64,000 nucleotides of DNA, from NCBI GenBank assembly GCA_964612415.1, contig CAZTCT010000001.1, positions 137,949-201,948 of the forward strand. Direction: 5' to 3'. The notes beneath the pieces were generated by a model that was not told the origin of the DNA, searched no databases, and saw nothing but the letters and a program-made list of their open reading frames with translations. The stretch is from an uncultured Candidatus Saccharibacteria bacterium (lineage in GTDB: Bacteria > Patescibacteriota > Minisyncoccia > Phycocordibacterales > CAYRGE01). How positions within the stretch are numbered: the first letter of the stretch is position 1; each line of letters begins with the position of its first letter. Below, one piece after another: positions 1,457-62,021 of the stretch. The translations under genes were made by a program, and so were the position numbers.

Positions 1457-2826
1457 TTTTTTCTTTAAAAAAGACAGAGCTACTTCTTGGAGTTTTTGTC
1501 TTCCTTTTTTATACAAGTCTTCTTGCGGCGATTGTTTTGGTGGGAAATGGGCGCGGGCTTCAAGCAGAAAATGTTTTTTCCCCTGAGGGGACGGATGCTC
1601 GCGAGTACGTTTCTCTGGCTCAAACATTAGTCTCCTCGCAACGGTATGCGATATCTCCTGATAGCCCCCCAGAGTATTTCAGGAGTCCTGGATATCCTAT
1701 GTTTATTGCCCCAATCCTTTCCGTAACGGATTCAACAGCTGTTCTTATTGTTGTCCAAATACTGCTAGTATCGGTTTCTGCTGTGTTTATTTATAAAATT
1801 GCGGCGGAATTATTTTCTCATTGGGTTGGCTTGGTCACTACCCTTATCTTTGTCTTAGATCCGGCAGTTATTACAACCTCACTCGTTACCCTTACCGAGC
1901 CTCTTTTTATAGCACTACTGCTTGGTACTACATGGGTTCTATTGCGGGAACACTCAACGAGAAACGTTATTTTGGCGGGAGTGCTTATGGGGGCACTTAT
2001 CCTTACACGCCCAGTAGGGATCTTTTTGGCCCCATTGTTTGTCTGCTTACTGATATATAAGGGGAATAAGGATTTAAAGACTATTTTGATAAGGAGTGCC
2101 GCCTTTGTTGGCGTAAGTGTCGTTGTTTTTGTTCCATGGATGATTAGGAATGTGTATCTTTCTGGGCATTTTTCACTTTCTTCCATATCGACCTATAACA
2201 TGCTTTTTTACAACGTAGTTGAGTTTGAAGTACAGAAAGGAGCCCCCAAAACAGAATTCATTAAAGGTCTTCAAGAACGCCTCGGGAGCAATAGTGATTT
2301 TGAGCTTCGGTCTTTTGACTATGCCGCAGAAGAACAAGCCCTTATCCACGAGTACCTTACGGGGCATGTTTTTTCGTACGCACTATTTCATCTGACAAAA
2401 ACAGCCCCCTTCTTCTTAGGGAGTAGTCTTGATGTTGCTGAGCGGCATTTATTTGGGCTTGGGCTTTTGGATAGGGAGCCAGGACCAAGTGCAAATATAT
2501 CTGGTCTTCTAATTTCAGGGGATGTAGAGGGTGTGATGTCTTTAATGCGCGAGCATTTTTGGATAACAGGGGAAAGAATTTGTTGGCTGCTACTCACAAT
2601 ACTTGCTCTTAGTTTGCCAGTGGTTCTGTTTTTTAAAAAAGATTCTCGCGCGGCAATCGCGCTGCTCTTCTCCCTGCTAATTCTTTTGTTTGCGATACTG
2701 GCTGGCCCTGTTTCGCACCCTCGATACCGAATCCCAGCAGAACCCTTCTTGCTCATTCTTGCCTTCGGCAACATTTATGTTATTAGTAAAGCGATTTGGG
2801 CCGCGTATGCCAAGAAATTTATATGA
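1453..2826 (+). CDS. Polytopic membrane glycosyltransferase, GT-C fold (ArnT/PMT, GT83/GT39-like)
   Basis: More than 10 predicted TM helices. The first extracytoplasmic loop carries a GTDAREY motif resembling the GT-C catalytic D-x-x-E-Y. The ATGA start/stop overlaps the pgk stop. The longer upstream start at 1432 is less likely. Confidence 0.5.
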   Translation: MIFSLKKTELLLGVFVFLFYTSLLAAIVLVGNGRGLQAENVFSPEGTDAREYVSLAQTLVSSQRYAISPDSPPEYFRSPGYPMFIAPILSVTDSTAVLIVVQILLVSVSAVFIYKIAAELFSHWVGLVTTLIFVLDPAVITTSLVTLTEPLFIALLLGTTWVLLREHSTRNVILAGVLMGALILTRPVGIFLAPLFVCLLIYKGNKDLKTILIRSAAFVGVSVVVFVPWMIRNVYLSGHFSLSSISTYNMLFYNVVEFEVQKGAPKTEFIKGLQERLGSNSDFELRSFDYAAEEQALIHEYLTGHVFSYALFHLTKTAPFFLGSSLDVAERHLFGLGLLDREPGPSANISGLLISGDVEGVMSLMREHFWITGERICWLLLTILALSLPVVLFFKKDSRAAIALLFSLLILLFAILAGPVSHPRYRIPAEPFLLILAFGNIYVISKAIWAAYAKKFI

Positions 2827-3272
2827 ATACTCCAACTGACATTGTTACATCACCGGAATCTGAAAGTGGAATAACGACGACTATTATAGGCTCTCGTACT
2901 ACCCAGGAATTTGTTCGTTATTTTGCAGCATCTCTCCTTGCGCTTATAGTTGACATTGGGTCTCTTGCTTTACTAACAAGTTTTTTTCACGTCCCGTATC
3001 TTACATCAGGATGGATTGCATTTACCTTCGGGTTGACCATTGTGTATTTATTGAGCATCTTTTGGGTTTTTGAGGTGCGCAAAGTGCGAAATGTCTGGAT
3101 TGAGTTCTTTGCCTTCCTTATTATCGGAGTTGTTGGTCTTGGGATCAATGAGGTAATTCTCTGGGTCTTTACAGGTCTTCTTGGGTTTTTCTACCTTATA
3201 TCAAAAATCGGAAGTGTAATTGTTGTTTTCACATGGAATTTTTTTGCACGTAAATTTTTGCTTTTCCAATAA
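2823..3272 (+). CDS. GtrA-like small membrane protein (polysaccharide-synthesis associated)
   Basis: About 150 aa with four hydrophobic helices and a GtrA-family-like layout. ATGA overlap with the upstream GT-C gene suggests translational coupling. Confidence 0.45.
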
Positions 3273-3273
3273 T

Positions 3274-4839
3274 ATGACTAGCGATAATCAAAAAAAGAAA
3301 ACAGCTGTCATTATTGGTGGTGGGCCCGCTGGGCTGACAGCAGCATATGAGCTTCTCCTTCGAACAGACATAAAGCCAATCATCCTAGAGCGCGACCCTA
3401 AGTATGTTGGAGGGATTTCCAGGACCGTTGATTATAAAGGGAACAAGATTGATATTGGGGGCCACCGGTTTTTTTCAAAATCAGATCGCATCATGCAGTG
3501 GTGGGCAGAAATGCTTCCAATTCGGTTCAAAGAAGGATCTTCGGATATTACTTACCAACGGACTACGCGCGCACTTACAGAAGGGCTTGCCATGGCAAAT
3601 GACTCACATGGAGAAAATGTGATGCATGTTCGCCCGCGAAAGACTCGCATTTTGTACGGGAATAATTTCTATGCATATCCGGTGGAGCTTTCTTGGGATA
3701 CGCTGCGTAAGTTAGGGCCGATAAAAGTCTTTAAAATTGGCGTAACATATACATGGTCCACACTTTTCCCTCGGAAGCCGGAGAAGACTCTAGAAGATTT
3801 TTTCATCAATAGGTTTGGAGAGGAACTTTATAAAACATTTTTCAAATCATATACGGAGAAGGTGTGGGGTGTTTCGTGCAGTGAATTGTCTGCCGAATGG
3901 GGCGCACAGCGGGTCAAAGGTCTTTCTATAAAGAAGGTAATCACACATGCGCTTAAAAAGGTGTTTTCATTTGGGCCTCTTTCAGGGAAGTCTGTTGAGA
4001 CATCGCTTATTGAACAATTTCTTTATCCAGCGTATGGGCCTGGTTTTATGTGGGAAACGGTTGCAAAAAATATCAAACAACTTGGCGGAGAGATATACAT
4101 GGGCGCTGATGTGGTGCGCTTAGATCACAAGGAGATGAAAGTGGTAGATGTCTTGTGTAAAGTCGATGGGCGGGGGCAGTCTTTCCACGCAGATTATGTC
4201 TTTTCTAGTACAGATATAAAGACCCTTTCAAAAATTATGTCACCATCTGTGCCACAGTCAGTCAAAGAAGTATCTGACGGTCTTGAATATCGAGATTTTA
4301 TTACAGTTGGGCTTCTATTAGAAAGACCCCCTCAAGAAAAAAATGGAGAGCCTATCTCTGACACATGGATGTATATTCATGAACCAGGCGTGTCGGTGGG
4401 GAGAATTCAGTTCTTTCACAACTGGGACCCACTTCTCCTTGCCTCACCAGAGAATGGGTGGGTTGGGCTTGAGTTCTTTTGCGCCGAAGGAGATGCTTTG
4501 TGGAGTATGAAGGACGAGCATCTGGCTAAACTTGCAACAAAGGAGTTTATGCAATTAGGGCTTTGCGAAAATAATGTGGTCTTAGACACGGTTGTTATTC
4601 GACAGCCAAAAGCGTATCCTGGGTATTTTGGGAGCTATACTCAATTTTCTGAAATAAGAGATTACTTTGATAAATTCAATAACCTGTTCCTTGTAGGGAG
4701 AAATGGGATGCATCGTTATAACAATCAAGATCATTCAATGCTTGCCGCAATGGCCGCGGTGGACTTCATATTGGGGAATGTTGAAAGGGAAGCAATCTGG
4801 AGTGTAAATACTGAAGAGAGCTACCACGAAACCAAATAG
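3274..4839 (+). CDS. FAD/NAD(P)-binding oxidoreductase (amine-oxidase / UDP-galactopyranose-mutase-like Rossmann fold)
   Basis: N-terminal dinucleotide-binding motif [16 protein letters not shown]. 521 aa. Co-located with glycosyltransferase genes. Confidence 0.55.
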
Positions 4840-16178: not shown

Positions 16179-16700
16179 ATGACAGAAAATCAGAGTGCTG
16201 GTGAAGCTGGTGCAATGGCTGGCGCAAATCTCTTGTCGGTACTAACGACGGGGGTTCCGATTGATCCACAGAGTCTGATTGTTCCAGAAGGACTTTCTGC
16301 CAGAGAACAGGAGTTGCTGGGGATATTAATGCCCAGACTCTATCAACCTTACATTCAGGTTGAATATAACAAGGTTGCCGACAAATATCGGTTTACTTTT
16401 TCTGACGAGCCAATAAAAACGGTCGAAGAACAGACTCCGTGCGTGGAGACTCTTCACGACGAAACCGGGAAAATGGTGGCGTTTGAAGTCCGGGGTATTG
16501 GCTCGACTTGCCGCACGGAGTTGCCGAATCTTGTTTTACGGCCCCGAAACATACGTCTGTCTGACGCACTCGCTCTTATGGAAAGGATCCATGGCCCATA
16601 TTTCTTCGAGAACGGAGGCCGCACAGGGGCTGAGGGGAATCGAGCGTGGCTTTTCACACAAGCCGAACAGTACGACATTCATATTGACCTCGACTGGTAA
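16179..16700 (+). CDS. Hypothetical protein (173 aa) inserted between fusA and tuf
   Basis: Clean ORF with an upstream SD-like agaggag. No recognisable motifs. Bracketed by a terminator upstream and a promoter-like TTGACT-N16-TATGAT downstream, at about 16744-16775. Confidence 0.45.
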   Translation: MTENQSAGEAGAMAGANLLSVLTTGVPIDPQSLIVPEGLSAREQELLGILMPRLYQPYIQVEYNKVADKYRFTFSDEPIKTVEEQTPCVETLHDETGKMVAFEVRGIGSTCRTELPNLVLRPRNIRLSDALALMERIHGPYFFENGGRTGAEGNRAWLFTQAEQYDIHIDLDW

Positions 16701-16936
16701 ACATCGCACTCCTTTCGCTCACCCTCGCAGGTGGGCTTTTTTCTTGACTAATATTCGTGTTTTGTTATGATGACCGGTACCGCAGTGCATGCGCCTTTTT
16801 GTTTTGTGGCGGATTATTTCGCCACACTTTGCGCAGTCTAGCGGGGAGAATCAAGGAAGTGAGCGCTCAAGGAGTGTTCTCGCGCATTGAGCGGTCAATT
16901 CCTATAATTATTTGGAATTAATAACAATTATTTACT

Positions 16937-18149: not shown

Positions 18150-18506
18150 ATGACAGCAAAAGAAGCGACAAAGAAGGCAGCAACGAAAGACAAGGATATC
18201 ATCCCGAAGCTTCGCATTCGCGTACGCGCATACGAGAGCAAGGTGCTTGATATGTCTGTCAAACAGATCATTGATACCGCACTTCGCTACGAAGCAGGTA
18301 TTGAAGGTCCTGTGCCGCTTCCTACAGAGATCAAGAAGTACACCGTCAACCGCTCAACATTCGTTCACAAGAACGCGCGAGAACAGTTCGAAATGCGAGT
18401 GCACAAGCGCTTGATTGATATCTTGAATCCAAATGCGAAAGTCGTAGAGGCACTTACCAACATGAGCCTCCCATCCGGAGTGAGCATTGAGGTAAAGATG
18501 CTCTAG
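18150..18506 (+). CDS. rpsJ: 30S ribosomal protein S10
   Basis: LRIRVRAYESKVLD...TEIKKYTVNRSTFVHKNAREQFEMRVHKRLIDI matches uS10. The short basic N-terminal extension is unusual. Confidence 0.9.
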   Translation: MTAKEATKKAATKDKDIIPKLRIRVRAYESKVLDMSVKQIIDTALRYEAGIEGPVPLPTEIKKYTVNRSTFVHKNAREQFEMRVHKRLIDILNPNAKVVEALTNMSLPSGVSIEVKML

Positions 18507-18527
18507 TCTCTAAAGACTTTGAGTCAA

Positions 18528-18560
18528 CACAAAACCCGCCGAAAGGCGGGTTTTGTTTTA
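18528..18560 (+). terminator. Rho-independent terminator after rpsJ (aaaacccgccgaaaggcgggttttgtttta)
   Basis: GC-rich 7-bp stem with a GAAA loop followed by a U-tract. It severs rpsJ from rplC. Confidence 0.6.
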
Positions 18561-18570
18561 TAATTAAATT

Positions 18571-19074
18571 ATGCGAAAGCGCGCAAAACAATTAATTCTC
18601 AGGAGAATCGTCGCAAGAATTTATGCGGGGACTACTTTTATTACGAATGTTTATTTAGACCATCATTCACATCCTGATACTGCGTGGATTAGGAATATAT
18701 ACATTCTCTTATCTTTTTATACGGAGCTACTTCTTAAAGCAATCTATATTTACGAGAAAGAATATTCAAAGCGCCAGGATTTGGAAAAGGTACTCATTAC
18801 GCAGGGACATAATCTTGAAAGAATCGGGAAGGAATTAGGACCTGATATATTAAAAAAATACAATATTTACAATATAAAAAAATTTAGAAGACATCAATAT
18901 AAAGTAGTTACAGACGTTGGGACTTTCTATGTTAAGGATTTTGTTGATATTCGATATGATTTTTTAACTCCTCGAGTTCGCAAATTAAAAGGCAATGAGC
19001 ATGAAATGTTTCGAATCCAGATAGCTTTTATTAATCGTATTGTGGCCTTCTTGAATGGCCCAGCTTGGTCCTAA
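18571..19074 (+). CDS. Hypothetical protein (167 aa) in a strongly AT-rich island between rpsJ and rplC; possible horizontally acquired gene
   Basis: Local composition is far more AT-rich than the flanking ribosomal genes and rich in Ile/Tyr/Lys/Asn codons. No recognisable catalytic motif. Confidence 0.45.
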   Translation: MRKRAKQLILRRIVARIYAGTTFITNVYLDHHSHPDTAWIRNIYILLSFYTELLLKAIYIYEKEYSKRQDLEKVLITQGHNLERIGKELGPDILKKYNIYNIKKFRRHQYKVVTDVGTFYVKDFVDIRYDFLTPRVRKLKGNEHEMFRIQIAFINRIVAFLNGPAWS

Positions 19075-19084
19075 GTAAAGCCAC

Positions 19085-19112
19085 TTGCATAATTTCTAGA
19101 CTTCTGTATACT
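19085..19112 (+). promoter_or_regulatory. Sigma70-like promoter TTGCAT-N16-TATACT driving rplC onwards
   Basis: -35 at 19085-19090 and -10 at 19107-19112, about 160 nt upstream of the rplC start. A hairpin at 19127-19146 follows in the leader. Confidence 0.4.
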
Positions 19113-19272
19113 CCTCCCATACAAGAAGTACCTACCCTGGTAGGTACGCCAAGTCCCAGATAGCGGCAGCTTATAGAGGGGACCAATGGCATCTCGCGAA
19201 ATGCGGCATGCTATTGCCGTATTTTTTGTTTCAACAGCTCAACGGGATGCCTCGTTGAGCCGTTCAAAACCC

Positions 19273-19884
19273 ATGAAATTCATTCTTGGACGAAAGCAGA
19301 ATATGACCCAATTCTTCAAGGAGGACGGCACCTGTGTGCCTGCCACTGTGCTTTCGGTCGGCCCTATGGTCGTCACCCAGATCAAGACTCCGGAGAAGGA
19401 TGGCTATGTAGCCGTACAGGTAGGGTATGAGACCCAGAAGGAGTCTCGCCTCACAAAGGCAGAGAAGGGACACACCAAGGACCTCGGTGGTTTCACCACA
19501 CTCAAGGAGTTTGCTCCAGGAGAAACCACTTTTGCTATCGGAGACAAGATTGACGCAAGTGTCTTCGCAGAAGGAGACAAAGTGGTCGTAAGCGGTATCT
19601 CAAAAGGAAAAGGTTTCCAGGGTGTAGTGAAGCGCCATGGATTCTCAGGTGGTCCACGTACCCACGGTCAGAAGCACTCTGAGCGTGAGCCGGGCTCTAT
19701 CGGAGGAGGTGGACGCGCAGGTGGTCGTGTTGCAAAGGGTATGCGCATGGCAGGACGCATGGGAGGTGACCGCATTACAGTGAAAGGACTTCGCGTGCTT
19801 GCGGTAGACAAGGATCAAAACCAGATCCTTGTTTCAGGCGCAGTCCCAGGTCGAAGAGGAACACTTATTGAGATCTACGGATAA
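19273..19884 (+). CDS. rplC: 50S ribosomal protein L3
   Basis: Start chosen at MKFILGRKQNMTQFF, which matches the uL3 N-terminus. The longer track ORF from 19186 is less likely. Confidence 0.9.
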   Translation: MKFILGRKQNMTQFFKEDGTCVPATVLSVGPMVVTQIKTPEKDGYVAVQVGYETQKESRLTKAEKGHTKDLGGFTTLKEFAPGETTFAIGDKIDASVFAEGDKVVVSGISKGKGFQGVVKRHGFSGGPRTHGQKHSEREPGSIGGGGRAGGRVAKGMRMAGRMGGDRITVKGLRVLAVDKDQNQILVSGAVPGRRGTLIEIYG

Positions 19885-21996: not shown

Positions 21997-22332
21997 ATGG
22001 ACCAAGATAATCAGATGCAAGAGAGTAAATTCTTTTCTAAGGGGACTCTTACATTTGTAGCTATTGCGGTCATTGCCGTTTTGGTATGTGTCTGGTATCT
22101 CCTTGGAGGTACTCCGGAGGGAGCATCGAATGAGATAGAGCAGGAGGGCGGTTTGCAAGAGGAAATGCTCAATGCGTTGCTTAAAGCAAAGGAAGGTGAA
22201 CCAGAAACACCAGCCCCCGCGGCAGAGGATATGGAGCAGGCCCTTGAGGATGCTAAAGCTGGAGAGAAAAGCATAGCTACTCCTTCAATTGAAGAAATGC
22301 AGACAGCACTTGAACAAGTAAAACAAAATTAA
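21997..22332 (+). CDS. Small single-pass membrane protein with acidic C-terminal tail, inserted between rplB and rpsS
   Basis: 111 aa with one hydrophobic helix (LTFVAIAVIAVLVCVWYLLGG) then an E/A-rich tail. A -10 TATAAT lies 8 nt before the ATG, suggesting a near-leaderless transcript. Confidence 0.4.
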   Translation: MDQDNQMQESKFFSKGTLTFVAIAVIAVLVCVWYLLGGTPEGASNEIEQEGGLQEEMLNALLKAKEGEPETPAPAAEDMEQALEDAKAGEKSIATPSIEEMQTALEQVKQN

Positions 22333-22352: not shown

Positions 22353-22823
22353 ATGAAAATCTTTCTTCGTCGATTTGCATTTCTTGTGGTGGCGCTTGTG
22401 GCTGCTCTTGGGATCAATTATGCGTCTGCGGCGTGGACAGCGCCAACGGTAGCTCCCCCAGGGGGGAATATTTCAGTCCCGATTAATATAGGGAACGTTG
22501 CTCAAGCCAAGACAGGGACCATTAGTACTGTTGATTTCTATAGTGGGTACAGCAGCAGCAGGTATAATTTTCAGGTAAATAGTGCAGGGGTTGCTTCCAC
22601 TACAGGTGTTACCATCTATGGTAATCCAGTCGTGAAGTGGTGTTCTTCTACTAATCATTGCCTCGGCACCCCGATTCTCTGTATAAGCAACACAGCGAGC
22701 TTCAACAACAACGGCATTGCCGTAAATGTGTATGGTTCAAGTGTTAGCATTACGTATGCAAGTGGTTCATGGAGAGTTCAAGGGGGAGCAGACAACTGTG
22801 CGGGGGGCGTTCTCGTTATATAA
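22353..22823 (+). CDS. Secreted Cys-containing protein with cleavable signal peptide (A-W-T-A-P-T-x-x-P-P-G-G-N N-terminal motif)
   Basis: Signal peptide MKIFLRRFAFLVVALVAALGINYASA, then a Gly/Ser/Thr/Asn-rich mature part with four Cys. 156 aa. Confidence 0.45.
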   Translation: MKIFLRRFAFLVVALVAALGINYASAAWTAPTVAPPGGNISVPINIGNVAQAKTGTISTVDFYSGYSSSRYNFQVNSAGVASTTGVTIYGNPVVKWCSSTNHCLGTPILCISNTASFNNNGIAVNVYGSSVSITYASGSWRVQGGADNCAGGVLVI

Positions 22824-45780: not shown

Positions 45781-45884
45781 CGGAGACTCCTCCTCTAGAA
45801 GGTGACTTCTGGGGGCACTCTAAACAATGGTGATATTGTTGTCAAAAACAAAAACGCCCACGAAAGGCGTTTTGTTGTTGGCTG

Positions 45885-46277
45885 TGGAGATGGGGGGATT
45901 CGAACCCCCGTGCAAAAGTGTTCCTCGAACGGTTCTACAAAGCGTAGTTTGTTTCATTTGTTTAGATGCAATGAGTAGAAAACAAACAAAATCTTCATTA
46001 CATCGATCCTCTACATTTCAAAATATTGTCGAGGCGAGCAATATTTCTACATCTGAAGATATAACACCTGTTTGATCATGTCAGATTCACAATCAGCAGA
46101 TGGCTACGCGCTATTTAGGCGTATGCAAACGCGAAGTCGTTCTTCGTAAAGTACGGAGAGACGAGCGCCCGCGCTTTTTGTGCGATATTTGCACTTTTGT
46201 TTGGCATGTTTTTCGAGAGTTGCCATCTCGGCTTTGCGCATAAGAGGGGAGTACCCTTGTCGATGCCTAGCATCCCC
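45885..46277 (-). ncRNA. ssrA: Transfer-messenger RNA (tmRNA, SsrA); inferred tag ending ...KNDFAFAYA-stop
   Basis: The minus-strand 5' end GGGGAUGCUAGGCAUCGACAAGGG parallels the E. coli tmRNA 5' GGGGCUGAUUCUGGAUUCGACGGG. The 3' end is ...GGGGGUUCGAAUCCCCCCAUCUCCA, a tRNA-like T-arm plus acceptor. It sits immediately downstream of smpB. An internal ORF ends GCA-UAC-GCC-UAA. Confidence 0.7.
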
Positions 46278-48818: not shown

Positions 48819-48894
48819 TGGTCCGCCTGGCAGGACTCGAACCTACAACCACGGAGATATAAGCTCCGTGCTCTAACCATTGAGCTACAGGCGG
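48819..48894 (-). tRNA. tRNA with anticodon UAU (tRNA-Ile, AUA-reading); CCA encoded
   Basis: Cloverleaf: CCGCCUG-UA-GCUC-AAUGGUUA-GAGC-A-CGGAG-CUUAUAU-CUCCG-UGGUU-GUAGG-UUCGAGU-CCUGC-CAGGCGG-A-CCA. 7/4/5/5-bp stems, U33, A37. Confidence 0.7.
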
Positions 48895-61930: not shown

Positions 61931-61935
61931 CCTAC

Positions 61936-62021
61936 GGAGGCGGAAGGATTCGAACCTTCGGACCAGTTTCCCGGTCAGCAACTTAGCAGGTTGCTGCATT
62001 CGACCGCTCTGCCACGCCTCC
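61936..62021 (-). tRNA. tRNA-Ser (anticodon GCU), class II with long variable arm, G73 discriminator; CCA not encoded
   Basis: GGAGGCG-UG-GCAGAGCGGUCGAAUGC-A-GCAAC-CUGCUAA-GUUGC-UGACCGGGAAACUGGUCC-GAAGG-UUCGAAU-CCUUC-CGCCUCC-G. Confidence 0.75.

Follow-up and report, generated by a model that had tools for sequence, protein, structure and literature searches.

A mobile Patescibacteria gene with a predicted HEPN-like fold in the spacer between the tuf-rpsJ terminator and the rplC promoter

The window analyzed here is a 64,000-nucleotide (nt) stretch of contig CAZTCT010000001.1 (assembly GCA_964612415.1, positions 137,949 to 201,948, forward strand) from an uncultured member of the Patescibacteria, and the subject of this report is a gene for a protein of 167 amino acids (aa) that lies in it between the ribosomal protein genes rpsJ and rplC. 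The S10 protein encoded upstream is 67-84% identical to the S10 of 80 metagenome loci, which serve below as the related loci, and the 90%-identity cluster that holds it is named "small subunit ribosomal protein S10". The features of the junction, with base pairs given as bp, are the following.

18150-18506, + strand: rpsJ (S10), which closes the upstream tuf-rpsJ unit, from the list of open reading frames (ORFs)
18529-18560, + strand: intrinsic terminator of tuf-rpsJ, with its hairpin at 18529-18556, from the terminator scan
18571-19074, + strand: the inserted gene, 167 aa, between rpsJ and rplC, from the ORF list
19085-19112, + strand: putative promoter of the rplC operon, TTGCAT (19085-19090), 16-nt spacer and TATACT (19107-19112), with a TG upstream
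19128-19147, + strand: first predicted hairpin of the rplC leader, 8 bp with a 4-nt loop
19148-19190, + strand: predicted leader helix, GCCA paired with the UGGC of the GACCAAUGGC box (19181-19190), with a variable hairpin inside
19198-19231, + strand: terminator-like hairpin with U-run in the leader, candidate attenuator of the rplC operon, from the terminator scan
19273-19884, + strand: rplC (L3), with the conserved start MKFILG

The tuf-rpsJ terminator consists of a 12-bp stem with seven G-C pairs, a 4-nt GAAA loop and a T-run, and its hairpin is the rho-independent terminator that a preliminary description of this DNA had placed after rpsJ. Very little flanking DNA is left beside the inserted ORF, about 14 nt on the left, between the terminator stem and the ATG, and 10 nt on the right, between the stop codon and the -35 element. 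The insert holds no second ORF, small ORFs on both strands having been checked, and neither direct or inverted repeats, terminal repeats nor target duplications were found bracketing it. No recombinase was found near it in the window, which carries a single copy of the family. An integron cassette and a passenger of an insertion sequence or transposon were considered and rejected, given the lack of flanking repeats, the mere 10 nt from the stop codon to the -35 element and the presence of an adjoining recombinase in only one of about 15 member loci (L012).

The inserted ORF is the lowest-GC segment of the whole window. Its GC content of 0.339 compares with a mean of 0.469 (standard deviation 0.026) over the other 504-nt windows of the 64 kb (z = -4.9). 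Since GC at third codon positions (GC3) is down as well (0.31 vs 0.47 in the neighbouring genes), the dip is more than a consequence of amino acid content. The protein itself is rich in Ile, Tyr, Lys, Asn and Phe, which make up 38% of its residues against 25% in the neighbouring proteins. Both the AT-rich ORF and the Ile/Tyr/Lys/Asn-rich product of the preliminary description are thereby borne out. The second-lowest GC segment (2812-3316, GC 0.369) falls on a stretch of 393 nt that lacks a long ORF (2827-3219).

The ORF is a real and intact gene. A search of 5.8 billion proteins returned 112 homologs at 40-68% identity, almost all of 162-170 aa and none of them annotated, and among 1.84 billion cluster representatives only 108 clusters matched the family profile at E <= 0.001. 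In 185,579 species-representative genomes, a scan with exact peptide patterns, which detects closer relatives only, brought up just 10 loci with a family member, every one in Patescibacteria. Wherever the source names an organism the family is restricted to Patescibacteria, entered as Minisyncoccota, Paceibacterota, Magasanikbacteria or "Patescibacteria group". No match was found by tblastn in 72,556 plasmids and 50,697 phage records, and none among the viral contigs of IMG/VR. The window protein has all of the 23 columns that are invariant in an alignment of 48 close homologs, for example in the PDxAWIRNIYILLSFYTELLLKAI, GHNLE and F-DIRYDF blocks and in R137...E143-H144. A spurious ORF in an AT-rich spacer is ruled out by the 112 homologs, these invariant residues and the confident predicted fold described below. 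The family is thus small, rare and well conserved, and it is not in any protein-family library searched here.

The related loci show how the gene came to lie where it does. None of the 80 rpsJ loci contains a family member. The closest relative with readable DNA, L098 (L3 73% identical), has an rpsJ-rplC gap of 177 nt without an ORF, in which rpsJ is followed by a terminator (AAAAAGCGCCC-tctg-GGGCGCTTTTT), a spacer of about 20 nt, the promoter and leader blocks TTGCATAATTT...TGTATACTCCTGCCATAC...GGACCAATGGCATCTCGC, a hairpin with a U-run, and rplC. These promoter and leader blocks are identical or almost identical to window positions 19085-19202. L042 (gap 217 nt, likewise without insert) has the same promoter and leader as the window, and L075, L094 and L032 also carry a window-like rplC promoter and leader. 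In the alignment, TTGC...N17...GTATACT is invariant across the window, L042, L075, L094 and L032. Among 74 related loci counted for this purpose, 23 have a terminator-like hairpin and T-run within 110 nt past the rpsJ stop codon, L098 and L042 (both without insert) among them. On this comparison the terminator, promoter and leader are ancestral and were not brought in by the insert. Since L098 has the same signals without it, the gene was dropped into the ancestral spacer of about 20 nt, and horizontal insertion into a pre-existing space between terminator and promoter is very probable. Neither transcription unit was disrupted by the insertion.

The horizontal insertion proposed in the preliminary description is therefore upheld by the lack of a homolog at the junction in about 74 related loci, by the unrelated contexts of the family elsewhere and by GC and GC3 deficits in most of its loci. 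Its proposals that the insertion had rewired the operon and that the leader was a new autoregulatory element fail, since L098 and L042 have terminator, promoter and leader without the insert. For the same reason we rejected a promoter and leader created by the insertion. The TTGCAT-N16-TATACT promoter, on the other hand, was correctly placed and is conserved in relatives. A scanner built on the E. coli consensus makes no call there because TTGCAT fits TTGACA at only three of six positions, and conservation among relatives supports the putative rplC promoter as better evidence than such a scan. From the signals of the L098 and L042 type it follows that rpsJ would in this clade be co-transcribed with tuf and terminated, the L3-L4-L23-L2 genes having their own promoter.

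The same comparison bears on the idea that the gene is an ancestral, lineage-specific and ribosome-associated member of the S10 cluster. Its position inside a ribosomal-protein cluster is the sole point in favour of that idea. The gene is missing from the junction in all related loci, the closest included, and homologs elsewhere never adjoin rpsJ or rplC, so that an ancestral ribosome-associated gene is refuted by the junction comparison. Together with the spurious ORF dismissed above, we regard it as hardly credible. The ribosome-associated factor suggested in the preliminary description fares no better, as family members in other places show no link with ribosomal genes.

The rpsJ-rplC gap measures 0-300 nt in most related loci. 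About a dozen of them have a gap of 0.4-2 kb, or no rplC within the 1.6-3 kb available downstream, and several of these contain toxin-antitoxin genes.

L038, 2847-4921: HicB-like (2.4e-13) and HicA (1.6e-14) by Pfam, inside the rpsJ-rplC gap
L046, 2303-5107: HicA (6.5e-10) by Pfam, downstream of rpsJ with no rplC in the fetched sequence; also a RHH/RelE-like pair, judged by eye
L078, 1960-3260: DUF4258 (2.6e-6) and DUF2283 (7.8e-15) by Pfam, inside the rpsJ-rplC gap
L085, 3357-4710: PemK/MazF (7.4e-14) by Pfam, downstream of rpsJ with no rplC in the fetched sequence
L040, 3348-4555: weak ParD (0.003) and HigB-like (4e-4) matches, inside the rpsJ-rplC gap

Because relatives hold such varied toxin-antitoxin cassettes at or near it, the junction behaves as a recurrent safe-harbour hotspot in related Paceibacteria, and this recurrent landing site is of interest in its own right. 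L040 and L078 have in common a small membrane ORF that starts with MNFKP, and on the contig whose L3 is closest to that of the window (81% identical), a 98-aa gene that is not S10 and has no Pfam match lies 290 nt upstream of rplC. The co-location of the window gene with toxin-antitoxin cargo is circumstantial evidence that fits a toxin or defence role.

A separate observation concerns L075, in which a second, partial copy of the start of the rplC promoter and leader (TATACT, about 45 nt, GGACCAATGGGCGG) is found at 3540-3600, about 390 nt upstream of the real one and within the 749-nt rpsJ-rplC gap. This suggests a duplication tied to an insertion event.

An AlphaFold2 model of the window protein, made from the alignment of 48 sequences, is confident (predicted local distance difference test 92.1, predicted template modelling score 0.87). 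Helices at residues 3-29, 40-62, 68-78 and 82-96 are followed in it by three strands within 99-122, then by a short helix (127-132) and the last helix (143-166). As modelled, this is the four-helix up-down bundle of HEPN domains, with a three-stranded beta insert. The structure matches listed include the HEPN domain of Csm6, sacsin HEPN, AF0298, the HEPN protein 4nqf, YutE and HI0074, and further the HEPN-like domains of kanamycin and lincosamide nucleotidyltransferases, while generic helical bundles (rhodopsins, designed proteins) scored 6.5-7.8 in the structure comparison. No match to PDB or BFVD reached a significant E-value in Foldseek. HEPN domains are among its best TM-scores, with sacsin HEPN ranked second in PDB and a phage "HEPN domain-containing protein" giving the best TM-score in BFVD (0.50/0.56). 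A HEPN-like fold of the window protein is thus probable, judging from the model.

The conserved residues give a less simple picture. R137 and H144 form an R-x6-H motif at the N-terminus of the last helix, invariant in 48/48 close homologs; this is the position at which the HEPN Rx4-6H motif reportedly sits (Anantharaman et al. 2013). In the wider family of 75 members the most conserved residues lie elsewhere: E52, H80, R128 and Y129 are each present in 74, S48 in 71 and D36 and R41 in 70, and R137 is kept in 67. The window protein carries this wider-family core of D36, R41, S48, E52, H80, R128 and Y129. Clusters of Glu, His, Arg and Tyr are typical of metal-independent RNases. The family offers a confident predicted fold together with clear candidate catalytic residues.

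On this basis we tentatively favour the prediction that the gene is a solitary HEPN-like toxin or defence gene that targets RNA. The bare single gene landed in the spacer of about 20 nt between the tuf-rpsJ terminator and the promoter and leader of rplC-rplD-rplW-rplB. Its protein would be a metal-independent RNA-cleaving, or at least RNA- or nucleotide-binding, effector of the toxin or single-gene abortive-infection (Abi) type. Low-level transcription would come from weak read-through of the rpsJ terminator out of a very highly transcribed unit, which is probable because the ATG lies 14 nt past the terminator stem and is preceded by no convincing promoter or Shine-Dalgarno sequence. A TATAAT at 18559-18564, 6 nt ahead of the ATG and without a -35 partner, could alternatively yield a leaderless transcript. 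As there is no antidote gene, the activity of such a protein would have to be latent or conditional.

A considerable number of results weigh against this prediction. H144 is found in only 19 of the 75 wider members and is already replaced by Asn in the 50%-identical P0104, and H80 has no fixed Arg 4-6 residues upstream of it; with the one His mostly lost and the other lacking its Arg, the canonical HEPN catalytic motif is no hallmark of this family. No match was found with the single 167-aa protein in Pfam, PADLOC and NCBIfam (in PADLOC-DB v2 none even at E <= 10), as the preliminary description had anticipated in speaking of a product without recognisable motif. Scanned with Pfam one by one, the 48 close and 75 wider members matched no HEPN model, and the PHROGs and PDB sequence-profile searches with the A1 and A2 profiles were empty. 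None of the profile methods connected the family with any HEPN model, and its membership of the HEPN superfamily by homology is no more than putative. The region upstream of the ORF shows, as said, neither a convincing promoter nor a Shine-Dalgarno sequence. Finally, no antitoxin or partner gene is conserved beside family members in the loci examined, and such a lack of an antidote partner is unusual for a constitutively toxic RNase. The toxin or abortive-infection guess of the preliminary description stands at the level of fold and context only, through the HEPN-like predicted fold and the toxin-antitoxin cassettes at the junction of relatives.

Two weak matches from the member scans were set aside. 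The sole AbiJ_NTD4 match in Pfam (0.059) was taken as noise, and so were the recurrent weak matches to COX16 (best E 5e-4), a mitochondrial membrane protein to which homology is unlikely.

The loss of the Rx4-6H His from most wider members, and the fact that a solitary gene is tolerated without antidote in about 15 contexts, can also be explained by a helical bundle without catalytic function. The gene would then still be mobile, and its product would be no nuclease, acting instead as an orphan immunity or antitoxin-like protein, as a small regulator or as a nucleotide- or ligand-binding adaptor, the last modelled on the HEPN-like C-terminal domains of the kanamycin and lincosamide nucleotidyltransferases. 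We consider this explanation possible and somewhat unlikely, given that polar and charged residues of the sort that make up active sites (E52, H80, R128 and Y129, 74/75 each) are nearly universal in the family.

The most specific form of the toxin prediction is a Patescibacteria-specific single-gene effector of toxin or defence type that targets RNA through a HEPN-like scaffold with a non-canonical constellation (E52, H80, R128 and Y129 with D36, R41 and S48), needs no neighbouring antitoxin, and spreads among lineages of the Candidate Phyla Radiation (CPR) as a bare ORF into terminator-promoter spacers or behind highly expressed core genes. In all its parts together this is unlikely. Were it true, rpsJ|rplC would be a dedicated hotspot for such cargo, beside an undescribed attenuator leader in control of the L3-L4-L23-L2 operon. 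If the gene does encode an RNase toxin or defence protein, it adds a CPR-specific single-gene system with a HEPN-like scaffold and a shifted active site, and few accessory genes of the tiny-genome Patescibacteria (CPR) are understood. Current understanding is not overturned by any of this; the family, the hotspot and the rplC leader are each worth a short targeted study.

Family members elsewhere occupy about 15 unrelated contexts in which no neighbour gene is conserved. Examples are the following.

L003/L009: between dnaK and HIT-dnaJ
L001: after holB and an unrelated membrane ORF
L005, 394-2524: between a Trypsin_2 protease and an NfeD/S49 peptidase, closely preceded by a DNA methylase and a weak PD-(D/E)XK match
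L007: after Ldh_2
L008: after hisS
L013, 3905-4513: after pnp, touching the 3' end of a tRNA, before an Smr gene
L016: between a SpoU-like methylase and an ASCH gene
L012: adjoining a large serine recombinase
L101, 46-1547: between another Trypsin_2 protease and groES-groEL
L099, 2-1170: P0154 (257 aa), in a 4-nt overlap with the end of a Type ISP restriction-modification enzyme (Type_ISP_C, E = 3e-37)

P0154 (L099; L100 is also listed) is a distant member with an additional N-terminal segment of about 85 aa, and P0160 and P0174 are extended in the same way. The tRNA 3' end in L013 was judged by eye (ARAGORN not applied); if that tRNA is real, P0109 (202 aa, N-terminus MPIAAVVKLVDTPALGAG...) would be a mis-call that translates the tRNA end. 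The ORFs that overlap members on the upstream side in L001/L002 and in L011 are unrelated to one another and to the family.

The composition of these members repeats that of the window gene. Member GC is below flank GC in 16/16 member-bearing loci, by 0.04-0.23, for example in L008 (0.354 vs 0.583 in the flanks). Family GC3 lies 0.10-0.41 under host GC3 in 9/13 loci, and the two are about equal only where the host itself is low in GC, as in L001 and L013. This fits low-GC lineages as long-term carriers, with repeated recent transfer into higher-GC lineages, the organism of the window included. The gene moves singly between Patescibacteria as horizontally mobile cargo, and the family is new and uncharacterised, of a known general kind, namely small mobile HEPN-like accessory genes.

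Three of the contexts raise the question of a stress or proteostasis accessory factor, which would be tied in function to chaperones and proteases and co-transcribed with heat-shock genes: dnaK|HIT-dnaJ (L003/L009), Trypsin_2|NfeD/S49 (L005) and Trypsin_2|groES-groEL (L101). Such neighbours are absent from most contexts, including the window, L001, L007, L008, L010-L016 and L099, and the patchy distribution and GC3 deficit suit an accessory mobile gene. Patescibacteria genomes being small, housekeeping neighbours are expected by chance. We regard a proteostasis role as improbable. As a side observation, the members in L005 and L101 are 33% identical and each lies directly 3' of a Trypsin_2-family protease; no similarity between these two proteases was detected by BLASTP, and either a functional link or chance is possible.

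The way in which the gene is inserted also recalls a free-standing selfish gene of the homing-endonuclease type, which would cleave empty alleles and so copy itself beside housekeeping genes. Insertions that consist of the ORF alone, with flanks of 6-60 nt, are found right after conserved genes (rpsJ, dnaK, pnp/tRNA, hisS, holB), member genes are co-oriented with the upstream neighbour in the loci examined, and the window has neither a recombinase nor terminal repeats at the insert. The predicted fold, however, is unlike GIY-YIG, HNH, LAGLIDADG and PD-(D/E)XK, its best matches being HEPN bundles; the member loci share no conserved flanking DNA or common target sequence; and the chance expectation of housekeeping neighbours applies here too. 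A homing gene is, in our opinion, very improbable.

Compared with known HEPN toxins and single-gene Abi proteins (HepT/DUF86 of the type VII HEPN-MNT system, PDB 7ae2 and 5yep; AbiD/F, AbiU2 and AbiV-type), the window protein is of similar small size (about 165 aa) and shares with them, as does its close subfamily, an Arg-x6-His motif where the last long helix begins. The family resembles them also in being patchy, horizontally mobile and AT-rich, with some members beside restriction-modification genes or a recombinase. It differs in having no sequence or profile similarity to HEPN models of Pfam or PADLOC, in the motif His, which is not kept family-wide while the universal E52, H80, R128 and Y129 lie elsewhere, in the three-stranded beta insert predicted between helices of the window protein, and in being limited to Patescibacteria where the source names an organism. 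Unlike HepT/MNT of type VII, it has no MNT or other antitoxin neighbour: neither an MNT nucleotidyltransferase nor a small DNA-binding protein was found conserved beside the family, the neighbours differing in every locus. The type II cassettes HicAB, MazEF/PemIK, RelBE/ParDE and DUF4258-DUF2283 are found at this same rpsJ|rplC junction in relatives and are, like the window gene, small, co-oriented and often of lower GC than their flanks. They comprise two genes with recognisable Pfam domains, whereas the window has a single gene without antitoxin and with another fold.

The leader between the rplC promoter and rplC was compared in six loci (window 19085-19272, L098:1365-1541, L042:2865-3021, L075:3908-4054, L094:4168-4362 and L032:1264-1407), each folded individually. 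All six share the promoter, an ACCUAY/GCCA element and an invariant ACCAAUGG box, and in 6/6 a strong hairpin with U-run lies directly 3' of the GACCAAUGG box, with unrelated stem sequences. Their folding is well below that of shuffled controls in every case (z -3.1 to -7.6). In every predicted fold but that of L042, a variable hairpin is enclosed by a helix between the 5' element and the UGG(C/G) of the box, formed through GCCA/UGGC in the window and L098 and through CCUA/UGGG in L075, L094 and L032. The leader hairpin noted in the preliminary description is present, one base off its earlier position and with 8 bp and a 4-nt loop instead of 9 bp and a 2-nt loop; it has a counterpart of different sequence at the same place in L042 and L098. 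Rfam has no family at gathering score for the leader in the window, and only noise at E <= 10 in 18400-19400. As folded, the leader looks like a transcription attenuator in its architecture, and it is a candidate for control of the L3-L4-L23-L2 operon.

The leader also affects the annotation of L3. An AUG at 19186 inside the GACCAATGG box is in frame with rplC in the window, L098 and L042, and not in L075, where a short ORF from the box AUG stops at a TGA that overlaps the rplC ATG. Because the ATG at 19186 is in frame, gene callers give an L3 of 232 aa (P0221) and not of about 203 aa. Most L3 homologs have 199-208 aa, the called N-terminal extensions amounting to about 20-30 aa, and the "extension", which spans the terminator hairpin, shows no sequence conservation. 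A match to GACCAATGG in L057 is probably coincidental.

The leader of the E. coli S10 operon is reported by Zengel and Lindahl to combine L4-mediated transcription attenuation with translational control. As in E. coli, a structured promoter-proximal leader ends in an intrinsic-terminator hairpin before an L3-L4-L23-L2 unit, and a further likeness is that the window-type leader keeps its architecture across relatives while the stems vary. It differs in preceding rplC and not rpsJ, since here rpsJ belongs to the tuf transcript and is followed by a terminator of its own, and in lacking sequence or Rfam similarity to the E. coli leader. The "S10 operon" of this clade is thus split: rpsJ ends with tuf, and rplC would have its own promoter and attenuator-like leader. 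This split matters for binning and phylogeny based on ribosomal-protein synteny, for annotation of the L3 start and for ribosomal-protein autoregulation outside model bacteria.

Some other parts of the window deserve mention. Between fusA and tuf, the stretch 16179-16771 holds a 173-aa ORF without Pfam match, then a terminator-like hairpin (16717-16736) and, ahead of tuf, a good promoter of sigma-70 type whose -10 is extended (16744-16771). With this hairpin and promoter of its own in the fusA-tuf interval, the str/S10 region is cut into several transcription units, and the interval may be a second insertion slot. Directly after rplB are two ORFs with hydrophobic N-terminal segments and no Pfam match (21997-22332, 111 aa, and 22353-22823, 156 aa), which are another break in the canonical ribosomal-protein gene order. 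Rfam places three RNA genes on the - strand of the window, a transfer-messenger RNA and two tRNA genes.

45882-46277, - strand: transfer-messenger RNA gene
48822-48894, - strand: tRNA gene
61935-62021, - strand: tRNA gene

A greedy ORF call at 45827-46075 (GC 0.39) overlaps the transfer-messenger RNA gene and is probably spurious.

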